Shown piece after piece: positions 39,721 to 49,192 of a stretch of DNA of 64,000 nt. Source of the stretch: a bacterium (GTDB lineage Bacteria > Zhuqueibacterota > Zhuqueibacteria > Residuimicrobiales > Krinioviventaceae). The stretch is from NCBI GenBank assembly GCA_963675755.2, contig CAXXMD010000002.1, forward strand, positions 1,248,001 to 1,312,000. The letters run 5' to 3'. Position 1 is the stretch's first letter. Every line of letters begins with the position of its first letter. Position numbers and translations under genes: made by a program. Under the pieces are notes generated by a model. The model saw nothing but the letters and a program-made list of their open reading frames with translations, did not search any database and was not told where the DNA came from.

Positions 39721-41970
39721 TTAACGAGAGGCAATTTCACAACTGCCTTTTAACGTTTTTGCTTTGGCAGTAACAGTTATATTACCGGTCAAACCGGTGG
39801 ATTGAACCAGAATCACGGCACTTCCATCTGCTGTTTTGGCAGATGTTGCCCCGCCAATACCTACAATTTTACCACCTTGAGTTGATTCAAATGCAATTTC
39901 AACTCCGTTGTCATGCGCAGGATTACCCTTTGCATCCAAAAGTTGAGCGGTTACGGAAATTGCATCGTATCCATCTGCAATCATTTCATCACTCAGAGGA
40001 GTCAATTGGATTGCTACAGGCTCCCCCGGAGTGATCAACACATGTTCAACCAACTCTCTCCCCTGCTTTGCAACCGCTTTTAATTCACCGGGAGCAAAGG
40101 GAACTTGCCATTCGCATTCAGTTTCTTTTGAGGATTGGATCTTTTTTCCATTCAAAAACAGATCAACTTGTTCACCATTGTGCCAAACATTAACGGCAAC
40201 TGCCTCACCAGGAGTTTTATCATTGTCCCAGGTACCTGCTATATGAACAAAGGGTTCTTTACCCCAGCGAGCCTTTAGATACCACGCGGGCTCCTTGTAA
40301 CGGCGGTAATAATCTACCATACCAGATGTTTGAATGGGCCATACGGGCTTGTATTCTGAACCGTAATCATGAAAACCCCAAACACACGCACCAGGCAAAT
40401 AGCTTTTACTTTCTATCAAGTCTAGATCCCGCTTTACACTTGCAAAAGATTTCATTTCACTGTCAAAATCGCCAATGTATGTTTTATCGGGATTGGTACA
40501 TTCGGAACTGATAAGTACCAGTTCGGGATAATTCTTGTGCAATTCATCATACGTATCAATGGCATAATTGAGTGCCATAATATCGGGTATAAATGCCGCA
40601 CCTGTCTTGATAGCATCATCAATATGATTTTCCGCATAGCAAGTAGGACGAGTAGGATCCAATCGATCTGCAGTGGCTTGCAGTATCTTGAACAATTCAA
40701 CAGAATGTCCTTCATTCATCAATCCCCAGAGAACAATGGATGGATGATTACGGTCTCTGCGCAGCATGGCATCGAACCCATAATCCATGATCTCCATAAA
40801 TCCTTTGCCTCCAATATGCTTCCATGAAAGGGGCTCTTCGTAAACCAGCATCCCCAAACTGTCACACGCATTCAAAAAATCGGGATGCTGGGGATAATGA
40901 GAACAGCGTACAAAGTTAACACCCAGATCCTTTAATATCACTGCATCCTGAACCTGCAAACGTTTGGGTACCGCATTTGCCAAACCGGGATAACACTGGT
41001 GGCGATTGGTGCCATTTACTTTTAAAGGTTTACCATTAAAAATCAAACCCTTGTCAGCAGTAAATTCAAAAGTACGAAATCCGATTTTTGTTTCAAGTTG
41101 ATCAATTAACTGATTATTTTCGATCAATTCTACCTGAAGCAGATACAAATTCGGATCATCAGGAGACCACAGTTTTATATCTTTTACAACACTTTCAAGA
41201 TTTGGTACTGCCCGGATCAGCCCCGGTGGAACGGTTATAGCCTGTTCAGAAACCGCATTTTTCTGATTTCCATCCAACACAGTTGTACGCACCTTGATTG
41301 TACGATACTCTGTTGATGTATTGTTGACTTTGATTGCGGTATTGATAACAGATTTTTTTTCATTCACCACCGGTGTAGTTGCAAACAGGTCATATTTTTC
41401 CAGATAAACATCGGGAAGGCTTTCCAAAGTCACTTCACGATAAATGCCGCCATAGACATTGTAATCAATGCGCCAGCGTCCCGGTGGAATCTCATCGTTA
41501 TGAAGGTTGTTAACCCGGACAGAGATCAGGTTTTCACTGCCCCAGTTCAGGATATCTGTCACATCGATTTCAATGGGCGTATATCCGCTGTTAAACTTGC
41601 CTATATATTGCTCATTCACCCAAATCTCGGACTGGTTACTAATTGCTCCAAAACAGATAAAAATTCTTCTCCCCTTGTGTTCAGCAGGTACCGAAAAATG
41701 TTTACGATACCAGGAATATCCACGATAATACCAGCGAACATCATCAAATGTATCATCCGCATTATAGGAATGCGGAGTACGGACTTTGATCCAATGCGAG
41801 TCTTTCCAATCCCATTGAGTGGCATTATATTTCCCGACCCAATCGTCCTGCTCGAATAACCAGTCATCATTAAAATCCATAATAATCCGGCCATTATCCT
41901 GCTCCGCCAGGACAGTACCGGCAAACAACAGTACAACAAACAGCAACTGCAAAATCACTAATCTTTTCAC
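39721..41970 (-). CDS. Glycoside hydrolase family 2 (beta-galactosidase-like), secreted
   Basis: Motifs WYRKHF, GGIYREV, LWSPDDPNLY, GTNRHQ, RCSHYP, RDRNHPSIVLWGLMNE (acid/base) and ISSEC (nucleophile region). GTG start at 41970 after GAGG. Confidence 0.93.
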   Translation of the reverse strand: MKRLVILQLLFVVLLFAGTVLAEQDNGRIIMDFNDDWLFEQDDWVGKYNATQWDWKDSHWIKVRTPHSYNADDTFDDVRWYYRGYSWYRKHFSVPAEHKGRRIFICFGAISNQSEIWVNEQYIGKFNSGYTPIEIDVTDILNWGSENLISVRVNNLHNDEIPPGRWRIDYNVYGGIYREVTLESLPDVYLEKYDLFATTPVVNEKKSVINTAIKVNNTSTEYRTIKVRTTVLDGNQKNAVSEQAITVPPGLIRAVPNLESVVKDIKLWSPDDPNLYLLQVELIENNQLIDQLETKIGFRTFEFTADKGLIFNGKPLKVNGTNRHQCYPGLANAVPKRLQVQDAVILKDLGVNFVRCSHYPQHPDFLNACDSLGMLVYEEPLSWKHIGGKGFMEIMDYGFDAMLRRDRNHPSIVLWGLMNEGHSVELFKILQATADRLDPTRPTCYAENHIDDAIKTGAAFIPDIMALNYAIDTYDELHKNYPELVLISSECTNPDKTYIGDFDSEMKSFASVKRDLDLIESKSYLPGACVWGFHDYGSEYKPVWPIQTSGMVDYYRRYKEPAWYLKARWGKEPFVHIAGTWDNDKTPGEAVAVNVWHNGEQVDLFLNGKKIQSSKETECEWQVPFAPGELKAVAKQGRELVEHVLITPGEPVAIQLTPLSDEMIADGYDAISVTAQLLDAKGNPAHDNGVEIAFESTQGGKIVGIGGATSAKTADGSAVILVQSTGLTGNITVTAKAKTLKGSCEIASR

Positions 41971-42006
41971 GCCGCACCTCGGTTTTTTAAACAAAAAGTA
42001 TAATGA

Positions 42007-42051: not shown

Positions 42052-43035
42052 TTATTCTTTCACCAAACGAACAGACAGGCCTAATCCATTTTCATCATAG
42101 CTTCGTATAATATCATCATTCACATAAGATAATTCACGCGTAAAAGCACTAACATTTGCGACTACACTTGTTGATGTCCAATATCTTGCTCCATAGTCCA
42201 TTGAATAAAAGGCACCGTTAGCATCATATCGATATCCACCCCCACGGGCCCTGAATCCACTTTCATTTGTGGCAGAAGTATTGGGCGTATTCCAATGCGT
42301 TGTACCTTCTTCTTTTAATTTACCACCGTCATCGCAACGGCTGGCACCGGAACTGTTTGCTTCTGCAGATGTCAGGCCTATGCTCATTTCAAGAACTTTA
42401 TAATCATAGTCAGAAGGTACACGCCAACCCTCAGGCGCAAGATTACGCGAATCCACAACAGCATACCAGTTGTACATGGCGCCATAAACAGCAGCATTGT
42501 CGCTGTCATTATTATAATAACAATAAGCACCTGTACTGAGTGCTGTCCACTCTGCATTATCGGTCACATGGGGAATTGGATCACCATTACGATAGGTTGT
42601 AACTCGCAGATCTTCAGCCATCCACCATTTTTCACCAATTTTAACAGTTGCATATACATTACCATCCTGATCGGTCATGGTACCGGTTTCGAGATAGTCC
42701 TGGGCAGTTACGCGTACCATAAAATTGCTGCCGGATATTCCGGGATTATCAGCATAAAAATCCCATACAATGTGTTTATTAGTACCTTTGCTGATAGCAC
42801 TTCCTACATCTCCGCTTACACTGCTGCAATTCAGATCCCAGGTTGAGCCACCATCATCAGACGCGGTCAGCGTTATATTCATCAGATTCATATCATCTAC
42901 ATCATAATAGACATCCACAATCAAACTACCATCTGTTCGCTGTGAAAAACTAACATTCGAAATCACTGGTGCCTGCGCATAAAGCAGACCTGAACAAAAA
43001 ACAAAAAGTAATATTTTAATCTTTTTCATCATCAT
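42052..43035 (-). CDS. Secreted protein: N-terminal Ig-like domain + FISUMP (Fib_succ_major, CLec-fold) domain
   Basis: Signal peptide, then a QRTDGSLIVDVYYDV...KHIVWD domain. FISUMP motifs DQDGNVYATVKIG..WWMAEDL, YGAMYNWYAV, APEGWRVPS, ATNESGF, YWTST and GLSVRLVK. Confidence 0.9.
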   Translation of the reverse strand: MMMKKIKILLFVFCSGLLYAQAPVISNVSFSQRTDGSLIVDVYYDVDDMNLMNITLTASDDGGSTWDLNCSSVSGDVGSAISKGTNKHIVWDFYADNPGISGSNFMVRVTAQDYLETGTMTDQDGNVYATVKIGEKWWMAEDLRVTTYRNGDPIPHVTDNAEWTALSTGAYCYYNNDSDNAAVYGAMYNWYAVVDSRNLAPEGWRVPSDYDYKVLEMSIGLTSAEANSSGASRCDDGGKLKEEGTTHWNTPNTSATNESGFRARGGGYRYDANGAFYSMDYGARYWTSTSVVANVSAFTRELSYVNDDIIRSYDENGLGLSVRLVKE

Positions 43036-43057
43036 TCCCTTTTTCTTTCATACCATA

Positions 43058-44050
43058 CTACTTTATCAGCAAGGCCTTTTGTGTTAACATTTGATTATTT
43101 GCTTTTAATATCACAAGGTACATTCCAGAAGGAAGCGCATTCCCTGCATCATCTTTACTGTCCCATTGAACATTATAACTTGAAGCGGATTGGGTACAAT
43201 TTGACAATTCCCGTACTTTTCTTCCGTTTATATCATATACACTCAATTCAACCTGTGCTTGTTCGGCAAGTGTATAGCGTATATGGGTTTGTGGATTAAA
43301 GGGATTCGGATACAAGGGCAAAAGTTCTGTTGTTTCAGGTATCTCTGCAACTGTACTGCAAACAGTGCCGCATACATGCAGATCACCGGAATAACTGACA
43401 TCGGAAAGACGGTAAAACCAGGTTGTACCGGGTTGAGCGGACGTATCTCGAAAAGTATAATCCTTGGGACTGTCGATTGTACCCCGCCCGGCAAGTTCAG
43501 AATGTGTTTCATAGGAAACAACAACCTGCCAATCAGGATTTGTAATATTCCTTGTACGCTCAAGAATAAATCCCAGGTTATTGGATTCTGTTTCAGTTCT
43601 CCACGAAACAACAATGGAACCTTGCTCCCGTGTTGCAGAAAAAGAAACCAGCTCTACTGGTAAAGATGTATCAAAAGTAAAATCCCATGTGTCGGAATAA
43701 GCACCGGTTCCGGCTACATTGGCAGCGCAAACCCGCCAATAGTAATTATTACTTGTGACCAATTCACCGGCATCATAGGAGGACTCGTTTAAACCGGACT
43801 CGTTCACAACATATGAATCAAAATTAGATGCTAATGATACTTGCAGTACATAGCTTGAAGCATGATCAAGATCATTCCAGTCCAGAACGGATAAAGCAGT
43901 ACCACTATGATTTGCCGGTGTGGACAAAACCGGTTGAGCCGGTGGTAAAGAAGTCAGAGAACCAGTCCCGGAATTACCATAACCGGTATCAGCCAATACA
44001 TTTATACCAGACAAAAAGACTAAAAATGCAAAGTAAAACCATTTTGGCAT
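43058..44050 (-). CDS. Secreted stalk-like protein: FN3-like + LPVEL domain + T9SS-type/FlgD-Ig C-terminal sorting domain
   Basis: ATG 44050 follows GGAGG. Motifs YYWRVCA, LPVELVSFSA and YPNPFNP...VYDINGRKV...WDSKDDAGNALPSGMY...KALLIK; no catalytic domain recognised. Confidence 0.88.
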   Translation of the reverse strand: MPKWFYFAFLVFLSGINVLADTGYGNSGTGSLTSLPPAQPVLSTPANHSGTALSVLDWNDLDHASSYVLQVSLASNFDSYVVNESGLNESSYDAGELVTSNNYYWRVCAANVAGTGAYSDTWDFTFDTSLPVELVSFSATREQGSIVVSWRTETESNNLGFILERTRNITNPDWQVVVSYETHSELAGRGTIDSPKDYTFRDTSAQPGTTWFYRLSDVSYSGDLHVCGTVCSTVAEIPETTELLPLYPNPFNPQTHIRYTLAEQAQVELSVYDINGRKVRELSNCTQSASSYNVQWDSKDDAGNALPSGMYLVILKANNQMLTQKALLIK

Positions 44051-44312
44051 AGTGCCTCCCAATAAAATAAAAAAAGTAAAAAGATATAATAAATATTAAT
44101 AAAATTTTTGCTACTCATAAACTTTGACAAATTAACCAAATTACATCAAAAAAACAAAAATTTTTATTTTCCAGTCACAACTGAAAAAGATTCATTATAA
44201 AGATTCTGAATTGATTAAAGCACGGTGGGATCTTTATGACTATTGATAGAAACAAAGATTTTATTGGCTAATAAAATCCCCAAATAACAAGATATGAATA
44301 AAGGATAGTGGT

Positions 44313-44342
44313 GCAAATAAGGGTAGACTCGAAAGTCTACCC
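44313..44342 (-). terminator. Rho-independent terminator ending the glycan island
   Basis: Minus strand GGGTAGACT-TTCG-AGTCTACCC followed by TTATTT. Confidence 0.8.
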
Positions 44343-44353
44343 CAACATACACA

Positions 44354-46192
44354 TTACTTAATCTCTTTTATCATCACATTGCGGTAATCTACGCCAGTAC
44401 CGTGGGATTGCATGCCGATATGCCCTTTGCGGGGACGCTGGCTGAGCGGCATATAGTCGCCATTGGCGGTGGTGACTTCATCCATGTTGGCGGAATTGAT
44501 CTGTACGCCGTTAAGCATTATAGTCACTTCTGGACCATTGCAGGTGATCTCGTACACGTTCCATTCGCCGGGAGGATTTGTATGTCCCTGTTCCGCAGGA
44601 ACCTGGTAATAGATACCGCCGGTATATTGAGCGGGTTTAAGATCATTGTATTTTTCCGCATTATCGTCTAACACCTGAATTTCCATACCCACATGCGCGG
44701 GATCTCCTTTTTCAGGGTAACGGATTCCAACACCACTGTTTCCTCCCTCGGGAATGCGCCATTCCAGGTGCAGTACAAAATTATCATATTCTTTTTTCGT
44801 AGTAAGCCAACCGCCTTTTTCCGCAATACAGGATAAAACTCCATTCTCATATTTCCAGGATTCGACCTTGCCATCCTTGGCATACCAGCCGGACAGGCCC
44901 TTGCCATTGAACAATGATACAAAATCATCATCAGGTACCGGACTGCTGCTGACCAGGTTCACAGCTTCATCCATATAAATCTCGGCGGTATTTTCTCCCA
45001 GGCTGGTGCGGGTGATATAATTATAGCGTTCAAAACTGTTAAAATCCACTTTGGCAATCATGTATCCAAAAGCGTCGTTGGTGAGCCCAAACAGAAACGG
45101 GTGTTTGGTATTCATGTGGCGTTTTACATAATATCCCACATTGGGCAGTGCCTCACCGGGTATAGTAAGGACCTGTGCTGTACCGATATTCACCAGATTC
45201 AGTGTGGTACTGATGGATTTATCCTCAGACAATGCATACCCCAACGGTGACATTTGCAGTATCATTTGCATCATTTTGGATTCAATGGGAAAACGAATGG
45301 TTTTGGATGTACAATATAATCCGGGATCACTTTGTACTGGTGCATTTTCCACAATGCGCAAAGCCTCATCCGCCATCAAATTACCAATACGTATACATTC
45401 TTCCCAGGTATTGTTCTCTTTACCATCATCCCTACGAACATCTGCAGTTACCATTCCCCCCTGTGCGCTGTTCATAAACAGGGCAATACCGCCCCCCTTT
45501 GCCTCTATGCGGTCATACATAGGGCCACACAGATCGGGTGAGAGTATTCCACGTTCTGAGCCCAGCACTTCCGGGTGTGTGGCATAGTTTATCAGTGTAG
45601 CAATGGGCTTTCCTGCGCTCTCACCAGTTTCAGCGATTGCCTGAATTACGCCCATGCGGGGATCATAAAGCCTGGGAGCATATGCGTTAAAAGCGATTTT
45701 GCCTTTGGCGTCATCAACAGCAATTTTCAAAAATGCGGATTCAAGATTGTCCACAGCTTCATTCACTGCATCCGCTATCTGTTTCACACACCAATCAAGA
45801 TACTCCAGGTCGGCATGGTGCTGACCATTCTGGTCCGGAAATCCATACGCATCAGGAGCGCTATGGGTATGAGTCACACCAATGATCACATTCTCCGGTG
45901 CAATATCTTTGATCAACGCACGGGATTTGTCACCCAACTTGGCAGGCCATCCCAAATTATCAATACTAACAATAGCAATTCGGGTTGTGCCGTCATCCAG
46001 TACCAATGCACGGGCAAACAAGTCTCCTTTTTTCTCTGTCACAGGATTAGGTGTACCCACACCACCGGAAACCGGCAGCAAGGGATCAGGAGTAATAACA
46101 CGAACGGCCGAACCTGCTTTGAACGTTCCCGCAAACAGGGATGGTACGGCTGCAATCATTAATATCAGCATGATGGATACTACTTTTTTCAT
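44354..46192 (-). CDS. Secreted fusion: neutral-ceramidase-like amidohydrolase + C-terminal DUF1080 domain
   Basis: N-part has LFARALVL, THTHSAP, NYATHP and TIPGE. C-part has SLFNGKGL.GW, GGNSGV, EIQVLD, GEWN and GHIGMQSHG..V.YRN. Confidence 0.82.
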   Translation of the reverse strand: MKKVVSIMLILMIAAVPSLFAGTFKAGSAVRVITPDPLLPVSGGVGTPNPVTEKKGDLFARALVLDDGTTRIAIVSIDNLGWPAKLGDKSRALIKDIAPENVIIGVTHTHSAPDAYGFPDQNGQHHADLEYLDWCVKQIADAVNEAVDNLESAFLKIAVDDAKGKIAFNAYAPRLYDPRMGVIQAIAETGESAGKPIATLINYATHPEVLGSERGILSPDLCGPMYDRIEAKGGGIALFMNSAQGGMVTADVRRDDGKENNTWEECIRIGNLMADEALRIVENAPVQSDPGLYCTSKTIRFPIESKMMQMILQMSPLGYALSEDKSISTTLNLVNIGTAQVLTIPGEALPNVGYYVKRHMNTKHPFLFGLTNDAFGYMIAKVDFNSFERYNYITRTSLGENTAEIYMDEAVNLVSSSPVPDDDFVSLFNGKGLSGWYAKDGKVESWKYENGVLSCIAEKGGWLTTKKEYDNFVLHLEWRIPEGGNSGVGIRYPEKGDPAHVGMEIQVLDDNAEKYNDLKPAQYTGGIYYQVPAEQGHTNPPGEWNVYEITCNGPEVTIMLNGVQINSANMDEVTTANGDYMPLSQRPRKGHIGMQSHGTGVDYRNVMIKEIK

Positions 46193-46207: not shown

Positions 46208-49192
46208 TTATTTTACTTCCAGTTCTACTTTTTTCATTGCTGTGATTCTCACCGGCCCTAAAAGTCCAGACGCCGGCAATGGCTTAAAGCCCAGTTCCTG
46301 TGCCCGCTCAGATAAAGAGTTACCGAATCTGGATCGCAGTTCTTCCGGTACCGGCGGTGCTTTTTCCCAGGCAGAAACACGGTTGATATTGGTATTTGTA
46401 ACCAAAATGGTCAAGTGGTTCTTTCCATTTTTCAAAAGACCGGTCACGTCCAGCTTCATTCCTGTCATCCAACAAGTTCCGGCATTCTTGTCATTAACAC
46501 TAATCTCAGCAATATTTCCTACTCTGCCAGGATCGAGTGTCAGAACAATATCCTTTTGAAGGTACATGTCAGGCAGAGTAAAGTCAATATCATACCTGCC
46601 GGTCCCGCTGAAATGACAGGTCAGGGAGTCATCAGTCCAGGATTTTAATACCGGCAGGTGTTTTTCAACTCGTTTAAAATGTTCATTCTCAAGTAACAGC
46701 TTCCAATCACCATTAATCACAAAAGGTGGGGGTACATTACTGATAGTTTTCGTTAACAGATGCTCCGTATCTGTCTTGACGTTGGCAAAATAATTTCCGT
46801 TTTCACTTGCAAGTGCAGTTACCCTGGTTTGACTCACATCATGAATTGTATTAAAATTGGTTTCACTCACGTATGGCTCTTTATTATCCGGGCCAAATAC
46901 AAGAATGGTCGATTCCCAGGGAGAAAGCTCAAGCGGTACCTTTATTCCATCTTTAACCTGAGCAAATTCAAGACATCGACGGATGTTACCGGTGTATGGG
47001 TCCCAGTAATAAACATCAGTATTACGGGTACGAAAGGTTACGGGTATAGTACTGGGAACGTTTTGAATATTGCTAACAAAATAGACATCCGAATCATCAA
47101 CCTTGCGATGCAAAAACGCAAGTCCGTTGTTTCTGCGCAGGTTCTCCTGTGCGAAATCAATACCGAAATCCGGAGCAATATGAGTACGGATTGTGTTTAG
47201 AAAGGGATCAAGCATGCTGCTGCGCATGTCCCACCATATTTTTCGATCAATTACATTTTTTATATAATAGGCTTTTCCTTTTCCATAATTAACAGAACCC
47301 ACCTCATCCCTGCGGAACGGTTCTTTGAACATTTCGTCTATAATGTTTTGCACCTTTTCGTCGTTAATACTAAAATCTTCCAGTCCTGTCGAACTATCCG
47401 GGACACGATCACAGGCTATGACTACTCCCCCATTCTTTACATATTCCTGAATACGTAAGAGTGTCTCCAAAGGCAGCGCCTTGATATTGGGAAGCAGCAA
47501 CACCTTGTATTCCATATTCCGAATTTTAATTTGTCCGTTTTCAAAACGAGCAATATTTTGTAATGCGTCGTCATTGAGCAGATCAAAATCGTATCCGTTG
47601 GAAACAAGCAGGAACCCGAGCTCGTCCCAATCAAATTCACGCGTCCATTTACGGGCATTGAGGGCGTCAAGTGCCCACTGGTTGGCGAGTGGCGAATAAA
47701 TGGCGATATCGGGACTAAAATCGCCCTGCCTGAACAAAAACGAACATCTGGCGGTATATTGAGTAAGGAGTGGATAAAACCGCCACCAGGTATTGCTGGG
47801 GTTGATCTGCGGCGCCCACGGTGTTCTGCGGGATGGGGCAAGATCACGCTCTGGTAAATAACAAAAGCCGTGATTATAAAATTTGGTTGCACCGGTACGC
47901 AGGATACCATCTGTGCTGATCTTGACTTCTTCGAGTGTGGCGCGGTAACGCTCCCAGTGCAGAAAAGTATGGGCCTCAACCGAGATAACGTCCCTTCCGT
48001 AAATGTGAGCGCCTGAAGCTACATATTTTTTCGGACCGATGCGATTATCAAACCATCCTTGGGAATCTTTTTCGCCCGGAGTGATCTCCATTTCCGGAAT
48101 ATGCGTTGCACCGGCAGCTTCCAGATTGTCCGTGGAAAATCCATAAGTCTGTACCCGGCCTTTGATACCATTGTTTTCACACCAGGTCATAAAGGTTTCG
48201 AAAAACGTCTGCATCCCCACATGATGTAAAAACTCGTTCACATCATAACGAATTTTAGGGGATATTTCACCCACCTGCCACCAGACAGCCGGCAGGTACG
48301 GTACCAGGTCATAACCTTTAAATTCTTTAAATTTTATCAAGAGGCTATCAGACCAATAGATACCGCTCGCCAGGTTGGGGAGTTCAAAACTGTCACAGAA
48401 AAACGAATCCACAGTTTTGCCGAACTCGGCTCCAAAAGCCTGTTTGAATTTGCCGCCCAGGTAATCGCAGTAACGCTGCATGGCACCCCGGTCAAAATGA
48501 TCAACTGCGTTGGCTTCACCGTTTTTGGCAAGCCAAAAGCACATAATCTTCCATTTACCTTCCGGTACCTGCCAGTCGAGTTTGCCGTTTTTCACCTTAT
48601 CCGTGATCACAACCACGGACTGCTCATCAATGATTCCCTCTTCGAGTTTACCCGCCGCGACCGCAATCAGTTTTTCTGTGCCGTTCAAACGCGGGTGATA
48701 AAGTTCCCATGATCGTTTGGTTTTGGCAAGAGAATCGGGTAACGCATCGTTGAAACGCATGGGACCTGTAATGTCCATGGAGCTGGGAATCATATCTTTG
48801 GATTTGTCTTCCTCCGACACCCATTCCCCACCGATTATCCAGCCCGGTCCGCCGAAATTAAAAGAGATCTCCATACCCAGGCGCTTGGCCTCATTCACCG
48901 CATGACGGGCCATATCCATAAATTCATCAGACAGGTAGGGAATGCCTCCCTTTTCATAAACCGCACCCATGGTAATCTGTTCCACACCCCGGATGCCCAC
49001 ACTACGCATTTGCTCGAGTTCCCAGGTGATTTCCTTTTTATCCATAGGATTCCCCGGCCACCACCAGCGTGTATGCGGCCAGCAATCCATAGGTGGATTT
49101 TTAAACTGCTCTTCTAAGGCTTGCAGAGGTCTTGCCTCTATCGTTCCTGAAAGTATCCATAACACAACAAGCATAAAAATCGAGCGTTTCAT
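46208..49192 (-). CDS. GH106-like glycoside hydrolase (alpha-L-rhamnosidase family) with a GH2-type sugar-binding C-terminal domain
   Basis: Motifs FKNPP...PHTRWWWPG, GPGW..GG.WV, VDHFD, FFCDSFE, ASGAHIYG...ISVEA and SGLLGPV. Confidence 0.85.
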   Translation of the reverse strand: MKRSIFMLVVLWILSGTIEARPLQALEEQFKNPPMDCWPHTRWWWPGNPMDKKEITWELEQMRSVGIRGVEQITMGAVYEKGGIPYLSDEFMDMARHAVNEAKRLGMEISFNFGGPGWIIGGEWVSEEDKSKDMIPSSMDITGPMRFNDALPDSLAKTKRSWELYHPRLNGTEKLIAVAAGKLEEGIIDEQSVVVITDKVKNGKLDWQVPEGKWKIMCFWLAKNGEANAVDHFDRGAMQRYCDYLGGKFKQAFGAEFGKTVDSFFCDSFELPNLASGIYWSDSLLIKFKEFKGYDLVPYLPAVWWQVGEISPKIRYDVNEFLHHVGMQTFFETFMTWCENNGIKGRVQTYGFSTDNLEAAGATHIPEMEITPGEKDSQGWFDNRIGPKKYVASGAHIYGRDVISVEAHTFLHWERYRATLEEVKISTDGILRTGATKFYNHGFCYLPERDLAPSRRTPWAPQINPSNTWWRFYPLLTQYTARCSFLFRQGDFSPDIAIYSPLANQWALDALNARKWTREFDWDELGFLLVSNGYDFDLLNDDALQNIARFENGQIKIRNMEYKVLLLPNIKALPLETLLRIQEYVKNGGVVIACDRVPDSSTGLEDFSINDEKVQNIIDEMFKEPFRRDEVGSVNYGKGKAYYIKNVIDRKIWWDMRSSMLDPFLNTIRTHIAPDFGIDFAQENLRRNNGLAFLHRKVDDSDVYFVSNIQNVPSTIPVTFRTRNTDVYYWDPYTGNIRRCLEFAQVKDGIKVPLELSPWESTILVFGPDNKEPYVSETNFNTIHDVSQTRVTALASENGNYFANVKTDTEHLLTKTISNVPPPFVINGDWKLLLENEHFKRVEKHLPVLKSWTDDSLTCHFSGTGRYDIDFTLPDMYLQKDIVLTLDPGRVGNIAEISVNDKNAGTCWMTGMKLDVTGLLKNGKNHLTILVTNTNINRVSAWEKAPPVPEELRSRFGNSLSERAQELGFKPLPASGLLGPVRITAMKKVELEVK

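Follow-up and report, generated by a model that had tools for sequence, protein, structure and literature searches.

Two adjoining genes at the locus

The window, i.e. the whole 64,000-nucleotide stretch of DNA that was analysed, contains two genes termed p1 and p2, the features of which are collected in Table 1. Gene p1 encodes a stalk that ends in a sorting tail, and gene p2 encodes an Ig-like module followed by a FISUMP head. The first-pass annotation had placed the two genes 22 nt apart, and the gap between them (43036-43057) is exactly of this length. The open reading frame that holds p1 spans 43058..44062 on the reverse strand. Its ATG at 44050 was taken as the start, because a GGGAGG sequence lies 5 nt upstream and a database homologue with 97% identity also comprises 330 residues. 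All signal-peptide cleavage sites in p1 and p2 were read by eye from the sequence.

The p1 protein had been described as an FN3-like domain, an LPVEL domain and a sorting tail with no effector. The Pfam and NCBIfam scan, in which the fn3 match stays below its cut-off and no effector domain was found in p1, matches this layout. The sorting tail scores 40.7 bits against Por_Secre_tail PF18962 (cut-off 27) and 44.9 bits against TIGR04183 (cut-off 23). A regular-expression search revealed that the LPVEL domain also precedes a sorting tail in about 20 further proteins of the source genome. The free peptide DTGYGNSGTGSLT (43990-43952), which had been predicted as the mature N-terminus of p1, indeed sits immediately behind the ...NVLA motif.

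Table 1. Coordinates of the features of p1 and p2 in the window
Feature	Position	Strand	Remarks
p1, tag-bearing stalk/anchor gene	43058..44050	-	330 aa; stop codon 43058-43060
p1 signal peptide, residues 1-20, ...NVLA/D	43991..44050	-	cleavage read off the sequence and aligned partners
Docking tag DTGYGNSGTGSLTSLPP, p1 residues 21-37	43940..43990	-	predicted mature N-terminus; interface predicted at residues 21-35
FN3-like stalk domain of p1	43664..43939	-	fn3, 20.5 bits (cut-off 25); conserved among partners
'LPVEL' pre-tail beta domain of p1	43316..43663	-	weak Pur_ac_phosph_N match
T9SS type A C-terminal sorting domain of p1	43061..43315	-	PF18962 and TIGR04183
Spacer between p1 and p2, 22 nt	43036..43057		ORF boundaries
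p2, tail-less Ig + FISUMP gene	42052..43035	-	327 aa; stop codon 42052-42054
p2 signal peptide, residues 1-20	42976..43035	-	read from the sequence; no canonical lipobox
Receptor Ig-like module, p2 residues 21-113, QRTDGS...VRVTAQD	42697..42975	-	Asp-box SDDGGSTW
FISUMP (Fib_succ_major) head, p2 residues 120-327	42055..42678	-	Pfam and NCBIfam

In p2, the Ig-like module runs straight into the head, as had been read before, through ...FMVRVTAQD-YLETG-TMTDQDGNVY, the last part of which is the start of FISUMP. Residues 131-326 match Fib_succ_major PF09603 with 150.1 bits (cut-off 33.9), and TIGR02145 matches from residue 120 with 98.9 bits (cut-off 41.65); no Pfam or NCBIfam family model covers residues 21-119. 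The sorting tail and the lipobox that p2 was said to lack are both missing: the T9SS C-terminal domain (CTD) HMM matches none of the eight Ig-module proteins of the genome, and no canonical lipobox is present, judged by eye on FVFC. The source genome has three FISUMP proteins with no Ig module, two of which bear lipobox-like signals instead.

The four neighbours of p1 and p2 scanned with Pfam comprise a GH2 protein, a protein with a 3-keto-disaccharide hydrolase domain, a GH106 protein and one protein with no Pfam match. The promoter scan at the locus stayed at chance level (6 seen versus 8.1 ± 2.8 expected), and the five terminator-like sites are all located within genes. A blastn search of the genome for a DGR template repeat, using the last 349 nt of p2, returned only paralogues of 72-79% identity. 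The source genome encodes T9SS machinery, represented by PorU in two copies (884 and 877 bits against a cut-off of 420) and SprA (518 bits against 200).

The Ig-like module and the N-terminal docking tag

The Ig-like module of p2 is widespread, with 2147 representatives at E<=1e-3, and carries FISUMP, FGE-sulfatase, beta-helix or ConA-like heads, a diversity that backs the earlier proposal of a swappable tip. In tandem arrays the modules repeat with a period of ~110 residues, yet the match to p2 spans only ~92 residues. Compared to the N-terminal single copies, the tandem-array units have ~17 extra residues at the C-terminus: the match to the tandem-unit HMM (119 positions) ends short of position 107 in 141 of 155 single copies, and 216 of 237 tandem copies extend to this position or further. 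These extra residues support the claim that the single module lacks a strand; however, the module alone is predicted to fold confidently, with seven DSSP strands in the AlphaFold2 (AF2) model of the fused homologue P0070. An HMM of the tandem-array tail, run against the own-genome ORFs, did not find the p1 tag, and its best match was the last strand of the p1 FN3 domain (E 0.58); therefore, homology between tag and tail is not established.

A sequence search of the PDB with the Ig profile matched only the sialidase Asp-box (E>=4e-4) and gave no solved relative. A fold search of the PDB with the P0070 model returned only generic multi-Ig matches, whose query-normalised TM-scores did not exceed 0.19. 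No usable match came from the ESM Atlas, and the single-sequence AF2 prediction of p2, with a pLDDT of 32.6, was uninformative.

The docking tag is an N-terminal stretch of 17 residues with the consensus G.G.S..G.L[TS]S. As a homologue search with p1 residues 18-135 gave only two matches, its distribution was followed by locus scans. The tag core is better conserved than the FN3 domain behind it (mean pairwise identity of 0.61 versus 0.39), and the tag is kept in partners that have no FN3 domain at all. Some partners bear enzyme bodies, whereas the minimal ones (L023, L026, L065 and L066; 135-146 residues) consist of only a signal peptide, the tag, a linker and the CTD. Tandem tags are also present, two in L054 and three in L063. 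When searched against the 10841 ORFs of the own genome, the tag HMM picked out five genes at 25-34 bits, with the next best at 9.0; since all five were in the training alignment, this result shows only that no other gene of the genome carries the tag. The corresponding regular expression hits 21 of the 10841 ORFs within their first 100 residues, five of which are the partners themselves, giving a background of ~0.15% of ORFs.

One subfamily of tag proteins, found at the C3 locus of the own genome and at L018 and L020, has FG-GAP repeats and a dockerin in place of the sorting tail (Dockerin_1, 24 bits, at the C3 locus). Given these tail-less tag proteins, the pair must have some use besides T9SS export. 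In several Ig genes of this subfamily, the module is immediately preceded by a lipobox-like motif (LTGC or TVGC).

Gene pairing and the predicted complex

Eight ORFs of the own genome contain the Ig module. They fall into five loci, each directly adjoined by one of the five tag genes, and at one locus the tag gene stands at the head of four Ig genes in a row. In other genomes, an adjoining tag gene was found at 14 of 19 usable non-self loci; at one further locus the partner N-terminus is cut by the contig end, and four have no tag gene. In metagenomes, 26 of 40 usable loci have an adjoining tag gene, about six of the metagenome loci being redundant (five repeat other-genome loci, and L056 equals L057). 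Five of the remaining loci have an adjoining CTD gene with its N-terminus cut off, and nine have none, seven of these nine having less than 250 nt of upstream sequence. At least one well-flanked locus, L015 (same sequence as L040), has no partner within 4 kb. Twelve new metagenome loci score 15-38 bits with a tag HMM trained on the other-genome set alone. In total, 40 of 59 usable loci from KSB1, Bacteroidota and Calditrichota carry an adjoining tag gene, and the visible C-termini of the partners are nearly always T9SS tails. The first-pass expectation that genes next to QRTDGS-type Ig genes begin with GxGxS-like peptides thus holds across phyla, and the pairing of the p1-p2 type is not due to chance.

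Complex prediction docked the peptide onto the Ig-like fold, as the first-pass annotation had proposed. The model of p1 with p2 has a score of 0.76, compared to 0.01 for the best of three controls (range 0.00-0.01). In calibration, 58 of 80 solved complexes passed the score mark, as did 2 of 110 mismatched pairs, figures that apply only approximately with our own alignments. The three runs share 100% of their contacts, with a partner pLDDT of at least 93. A memorised solved structure is unlikely to account for the pass, because the Ig module has no solved relative by sequence. The interface, judged from contact lists rather than coordinates, is formed by p1 residues 21-35 and two FN3 loops (residues 62-65 and 111-113), which contact p2 residues 21-44 and 93-113. 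The modelled tag lies alongside the F strand of p2 (residues 105-111) in antiparallel orientation and packs against the A strand (residues 28-30), i.e. at the position of a G strand, with p1 Leu32 contacting the core residues Q32, V40, F93 and F105 of p2. Conservation at the interface positions of the Ig module (0.58) does not significantly exceed that of its other positions (0.51, p=0.16). Covariation between tag and module comprises one event, V40A together with L to M, in addition to a clade-level split into two tag/Ig classes.

The first-pass annotation had further suggested that fused homologues might carry the strand in cis. Among the 150 representatives listed, two Ig-FISUMP-CTD forms do have a tag-like stretch after the FISUMP domain, but it is disordered in the AF2 monomer: residues 331-350 of P0070 are predicted as coil with a pLDDT of 37-38, in a region where the alignment has only two rows. 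In the fused forms P0083, P0085 and P0058, the Ig F strand passes directly into FN3 with no tag in between.

A candidate docking system for T9SS export

We consider that p1 and p2 are probably two halves of a modular docking system, in which a tag-in-Ig heterodimer is carried by the T9SS. The p1 protein would be the T9SS substrate, with a Sec signal peptide, the tag, the FN3 and LPVEL stalk and the type A sorting tail, whereas p2 would enter the periplasm via Sec with no outer-membrane targeting signal of its own. The p1 tag may insert next to the F strand of the p2 Ig module, antiparallel to it, and against the A strand; its G-strand position would make this a case of donor-strand complementation and give a non-covalent p1-p2 heterodimer. 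Led by the p1 sorting tail, both proteins would subsequently leave via the T9SS and become anchored to the cell exterior by this tail. In this arrangement, the stalk would present the FISUMP lectin head of p2, a putative sugar binder, at its far end. The domain anatomy, the conserved gene pairing and tag, the modular build of both partners and a confident complex model with clean controls are computational findings. Beyond such piggyback export of p2, we infer the binding of the two proteins in vivo, the assembly site of the complex and the instability of the unpaired Ig module.

It is quite improbable that p1 and p2 are independent secreted proteins, merely co-transcribed, with the peptide being a linker, a site of processing or modification, or part of an extended FN3 domain, and the complex model being a false positive. 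The undocked cis stretch of P0070, the lack of tag similarity in the tandem-array tail HMM, the non-significant conservation of the Ig interface and the two mismatched pairs that passed in calibration all fit independent proteins. However, the adjacency persists across phyla and with unrelated bodies on either side, the tag is kept without FN3, is tandemly repeated and occurs in no other gene of the genome, and the controls lie far below the p1-p2 score. We also find it very doubtful that the two proteins bind without completing the Ig sandwich, either by edge-on beta augmentation or mainly through FN3-Ig contact, the Ig module being already complete and stable. The confident seven-strand fold of the module alone, the FN3 loops that touch p2 and the reading of the model from contact lists point in this direction; against it, FN3-less partners retain the tag, the modelled tag touches both the F and A strands with Leu32 on the Ig core residues, and the extra C-terminal segment of the tandem-array copies begins precisely where the p2 module ends.

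Rather unlikely, in our judgement, is a reading in which the tag-Ig binding is real but acts as a general heterodimerisation module instead of a means of T9SS hitch-hiking. The two proteins could then be released separately and assemble at the surface or on vesicles, or, in some classes, an Ig lipoprotein could be the anchor and the tag protein its passenger. The tail-less tag proteins with FN3, FG-GAP repeats and dockerin, as well as the lipobox-like motifs in their subfamily, would suit such a role; moreover, T9SS co-transport of a tail-less partner was not found in the open literature searched. A description of the tag/Ig pair was not found there either (the papers searched include PMC10994853). 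By contrast, the predominance of T9SS tails at the visible partner C-termini, the one periplasm that both proteins share, the absence of a lipobox from p2 itself and the partners made of little but tag and tail, which have no evident role beyond linking something to the T9SS, count against this reading.

In chaperone-usher pili (Pap, Fim), an N-terminal extension fills the groove left by the missing G strand in the incomplete Ig-like fold of another subunit. The p1 donor, also N-terminal, is modelled likewise antiparallel to the F strand and beside the A strand. Unlike these pili, no PapD-like chaperone or usher is encoded by the four Pfam-scanned neighbours, the Ig module is unrelated in sequence to any solved structure, and the proposed product is a heterodimer (or a 1:n complex with tandem tags) exported via the T9SS rather than a polymer. 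The subunits of type V pili are lipoprotein precursors that are activated by proteolysis and donate C-terminal strands, whereas a canonical lipobox is absent from p2, the proposed donor strand is at the p1 N-terminus, and Pfam and NCBIfam detected no fimbrillin family. SpyTag/SpyCatcher is an engineered split Ig-like domain, in which, as proposed here, a short peptide supplies the last Ig-like strand and joins two proteins; however, the tag/Ig pair is natural and an isopeptide bond is not indicated. Type V pili of Bacteroidota show strand exchange of FimA and Mfa1, and their tip protein Mfa5 depends on the T9SS, according to published reports (PMC4789730, PMC5954841, PMC8512630). The p1-p2 pair shares with them the superphylum, the proposed Ig-like strand exchange and the T9SS link of one component. 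At the system level, the small docking element, interchangeable heads and anchored stalk are reminiscent of cohesin-dockerin scaffoldins, and the tandem tags of L054 and L063 of multi-cohesin ones; the fold and mechanism differ, and p1 and p2 contain neither dockerin nor cohesin (Pfam). Both proteins satisfy the respective family models of ordinary T9SS type A cargo and FISUMP; p1, however, differs from ordinary cargo in having no effector, and p2 from FISUMP lipoproteins in having neither a tail nor a lipid anchor.

More tentatively, and with somewhat less than even confidence, we propose that T9SS-bearing phyla (KSB1, Bacteroidota and Calditrichota) share a natural "tag and catcher" system, in which a peptide of ~15 residues may supply the missing Ig strand, tail-less lectins, sulfatase-like and beta-helix proteins may ride the T9SS on a tail-bearing carrier that also displays them, and the number of tandem tags may determine valency. 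If true, the T9SS would have its first hitch-hiker route, and donor-strand complementation would be put to a new use beyond pili, extending from pilus polymerisation to the modular display of heterodimers. A short peptide/receptor pair of natural origin, the valency of which can be chosen, might in addition serve as a protein-coupling tool. T9SS secretomes would then be under-counted, since tail-less proteins could leave the cell by docking onto a carrier. An Ig-like module of ~93 residues, with more than 2000 representative clusters and no family model, would gain a function, and the arrival at the surface of many FISUMP, FGE-sulfatase and beta-helix proteins with neither tail nor lipid anchor in environmental FCB bacteria would be explained.

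Gene pair and Ig module

The pair consists of two ORFs 22 nt apart, encoding p1 (signal peptide, short N-terminal tag, FN3, LPVEL domain and sorting tail) and the tail-less p2 (signal peptide, Ig-like module and FISUMP head); an ORF scan confirmed every coordinate of the first-pass annotation. p1 has the tail of a typical T9SS type A cargo protein (PF18962, 40.7 bits, cut-off 27; TIGR04183, 44.9 bits, cut-off 23). Its FN3 match is weak, and searches of Pfam and NCBIfam gave no effector domain. The LPVEL-motif β domain also stands right before the tail in ~20 proteins of this genome, as counted by regular expression. By its head, p2 is an ordinary FISUMP member (PF09603, 150.1 bits against a cut-off of 33.9; TIGR02145 starting at residue 120), and its residues 21-119 have no annotation in Pfam or NCBIfam. 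This Ig-like part closes with ...FMVRVTAQD, six residues ahead of the FISUMP domain.

Positions and strands of the features discussed (without prefix, positions in the window)
Feature	Position	Strand	Remark
p1	43058-44050	-	ATG start after GGGAGG; 330 aa, same as a 97%-identical database protein
p2	42052-43035	-	ORF
Mature N-terminus of p1	43990-43940	-	DTGYGNSGTGSLTSLPP, right after signal peptide end ...NVLA
Asp-box in p2 Ig module	42832-42855		SDDGGSTW, p2 residues 59-66
GC-rich hairpin	~44320-44345	-	gggtagac...gtctaccc, after stop of upstream 612-aa gene
GH2	39721-41994	pair's strand	flanks pair
3-keto-disaccharide hydrolase-domain protein	44354-46192	pair's strand	flanks pair
GH106 alpha-L-rhamnosidase	46208-49192	pair's strand	flanks pair
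Set 1 loci with tag gene	L006, L007, L009, L010, L012, L013, L014, L017, L018, L019, L021, L023, L025, L026
Second locus type	G000:C3:3423255-3426378 (L004); L018:5938-12094; L020:3747-12273
Tandem tags	L054:2956-4893	+	two, right behind signal peptide
Tandem tags	L063:1246-3240	+	three, right behind signal peptide
Tail-less 1111-aa protein	L024:3105-6440	+	Cloacimonadota; 3' of fragmented Ig gene
FISUMP proteins without Ig	G000:C2:355032-356876; C3:1553272-1554378		lipoprotein-type signals (..FTSC, ..FTFSC)
Third FISUMP protein without Ig	C3:3508551-3509456		no evident signal
Three small tandem ORFs	G000:C3:3415050-3416724		175-206 aa, N-termini alike; within cluster of T9SS-tailed proteins
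Two tandem PorU genes	C3:1311408-1318919

Pfam and NCBIfam hold no family model of the Ig module, and sequence searches gave no solved relative; the Asp-box alone matches sialidases, in propeller blades. An exhaustive search found the module in 2147 representative clusters (E<=1e-3), with two prominent contexts: a single copy after the signal peptide, and tandem arrays of up to 23-28 copies in giant proteins. The giant proteins P0001 (5686 aa), P0002 and P0003 carry 13-28 copies in blocks of three or four, with spacers of ~440 residues between blocks. The heads on the Ig side comprise one to three FISUMP domains, FGE-sulfatase plus FISUMP, a right-handed β-helix and a ConA-like lectin domain.

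The array period is ~110 residues, compared to ~92 covered by the p2 match, and the extra residues come after ...RVRATD with a pattern like SFGNQGS..SSNFTLDT..P. With a tandem-unit HMM (72 units, 119 positions), the match ends before position 107 in 141/155 single N-terminal copies (median 94), while 216/237 array copies reach this position or further; as array copies were part of the training, only the former count is informative. Judged by its position and pattern, this extra segment would form the final strand of the sandwich. An HMM of this array tail gave no match to the tag, and homology of the two is thus unproven.

Recurrence of the tag beside Ig genes

In this 6.48-Mb genome (window at G000:C2:1248001-1312000), a blastp search of all ORFs with the Ig part of p2 found the module at the N-terminus of eight proteins. 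None of the eight bears a sorting tail, which our own CTD HMM detects in ~261 ORFs genome-wide. Full-length p1 relatives sit immediately upstream at two loci (C2_82076 -> C2_83125; C2_677367 -> C2_678143), another (C2_1617834) lies directly 5' of a four-gene Ig array, and the fifth locus lies on contig C3, where an Ig gene is followed by a 729-aa protein sharing the p1-type N-terminal region. The five neighbourhoods are unrelated to each other. The shortest p1 relative (246 aa) has only a signal peptide, the peptide, one FN3 and the tail. The tag consensus is A|G[TSY]G[IVY]G[ENT]S....[LM]TS[LM]PP, and a tag HMM run against 10841 ORFs scores just the five partner genes (25-34 bits; runner-up 9.0); because these belonged to its training alignment, the result means that no other gene has the tag. 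As background, the tag regular expression matches the first 100 residues of 21/10841 ORFs, five of which are the partners themselves.

The first-pass annotation had asked whether neighbours of Ig genes begin with such peptides, and in most usable loci of other organisms they do. An Ig alignment scan with one genome per species gave 24 loci, 19 of them usable (four came from a record near-identical to this genome and one had no Ig ORF), from KSB1, Prolixibacteraceae, Draconibacterium, Cytophagia, Calditrichota and unclassified bacteria. A neighbouring gene has the tag at its mature N-terminus in 14/19; at L016 the partner is present with its N-terminus lost at the contig end, and four loci (L015, L022, L024 and L027) have no tag gene. 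At L015, whose sequence equals that of L040, no partner lies within 4 kb. The 1111-aa protein of L024 starts with two divergent tag-like stretches, GYGISDAVELNTV and GFAVSEAVTLETG, which may represent a third tag class. A metagenome scan added 43 loci (set 2), of which three were unusable. Among the 40 kept, the tag gene adjoins the Ig gene in 26, five have an adjoining tail-bearing gene with a truncated N-terminus, and nine show no tag gene, seven of these with <250 nt of upstream sequence; about six are duplicates (L037, L044, L040, L062 and L067 equal set 1 loci, and L056 equals L057). The tag HMM built from set 1 alone recovered 12 new set 2 loci at 15-38 bits.

Partners have the tag and, in most cases, the tail in common, but nothing else. 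Four partners of 135-146 aa (L023, L026, L065, L066) have only a signal peptide, tag, short linker and tail, while those of L046, L048 and L050 reach 591-992 aa and that of L047 has an extra LCAT/lipase-like body. In the partner N-terminal region, the tag core, with a mean pairwise identity of 0.61, is conserved to the level of the FN3 core motif; FN3 overall has 0.39. Tandem tags (for example, AVGEGISNFGSLTSII, SVGEGISSVGSLTSII and VGVGISAVGTLSSIP) suggest multivalent docking of Ig-headed proteins. A tail-less subfamily (the C3 locus, L018, L020) combines the tag with FN3, FG-GAP repeats and a dockerin. In this second locus type, one to five Ig+FISUMP genes precede the tail-less protein, and several Ig genes encode a lipobox-like LTGC or TVGC right before the module, so at these loci anchoring may fall to the Ig protein.

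Predicted complex and candidate strand donation

For the complex model, the inputs were mature p2 with an alignment of 31 rows and residues 21-130 of p1 with one of 18 rows. In line with the earlier proposal that the p1 peptide docks on the Ig module as a strand, the complex scored 0.76, versus 0.01 for the best of three controls. The score mark is reached by 58/80 solved complexes and 2/110 mismatched pairs, counts that hold only roughly here as our own alignments were used. Contact agreement among runs was at least 100%, with partner pLDDT of at least 93. In the predicted interface, residues 21-35 of p1 and two of its FN3 loops face residues 21-44 and 93-113 of p2. Its lowest-error pairs are antiparallel (p2 105->110 against tag 32->25), the A strand of p2 (residues 28-30) contacts tag residues 25-27, and tag Leu32 contacts Q32, V40, F93, G102 and F105. 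The predicted geometry is that of a G strand given in trans. The model supports p1-p2 binding, short of showing it; we consider binding via the tag likely, and the G-strand geometry of the docked tag somewhat favoured.

Conservation of the Ig interface showed no significant difference (p=0.16). Covariation comprises one substitution pair and two co-varying classes, in which LTS[LM]PP tags go with the Ig loop DNP (20 pairs) and tags without PP with EHx/DHP (10 pairs), a clade-level signal only. Fused homologues were expected to carry the strand in cis, and this was borne out in part. Both Ig-FISUMP-tail fusions among 150 representatives (P0070, P0101) have a tag-like stretch after FISUMP, a near match in P0101; that of P0070 matches the regular expression and is the top tag-HMM match, yet with E 0.069 among 150 sequences. 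In AF2, however, this stretch of P0070 is a low-confidence coil, where the alignment has two rows, and its Ig module alone folds confidently. Direct Ig-FN3 fusions have no tag between the two domains.

Proposed export and display

An AT-rich stretch of ~250 nt lies between the GC-rich hairpin and p1, and the terminator scan does not list the hairpin among its sites. Given these two features upstream of p1, p1-p2 probably form a separate transcription unit. Like chaperone-usher pili, the pair would use donor-strand complementation, but the machinery of those pili was not found among the four neighbours scanned with Pfam. No type V pilus subunit is involved, as judged by the missing lipobox and fimbrillin domain and the N-terminal donor. 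Viewed as a system, the pair is similar to cohesin-dockerin display. In the open-access literature searched, T9SS was linked to a donor strand for type V pili only, and nothing was found on T9SS hitch-hiking (PMC10994853 included).

Judging from their signal peptides, p1 and p2 would enter the periplasm via Sec, where the p1 tag would complete or augment the p2 Ig module, and the p1 tail would carry the pair to the T9SS encoded in this genome. For such piggyback export of p2, in which we infer co-translocation, we see an even chance. Tag proteins without a tail exist, so the pair has other uses too. The surroundings of the pair are a glycan-degrading neighbourhood, and a role in glycan capture fits the neighbouring genes, although unproven by them; the stalk would keep the lectin head at a distance from the surface.
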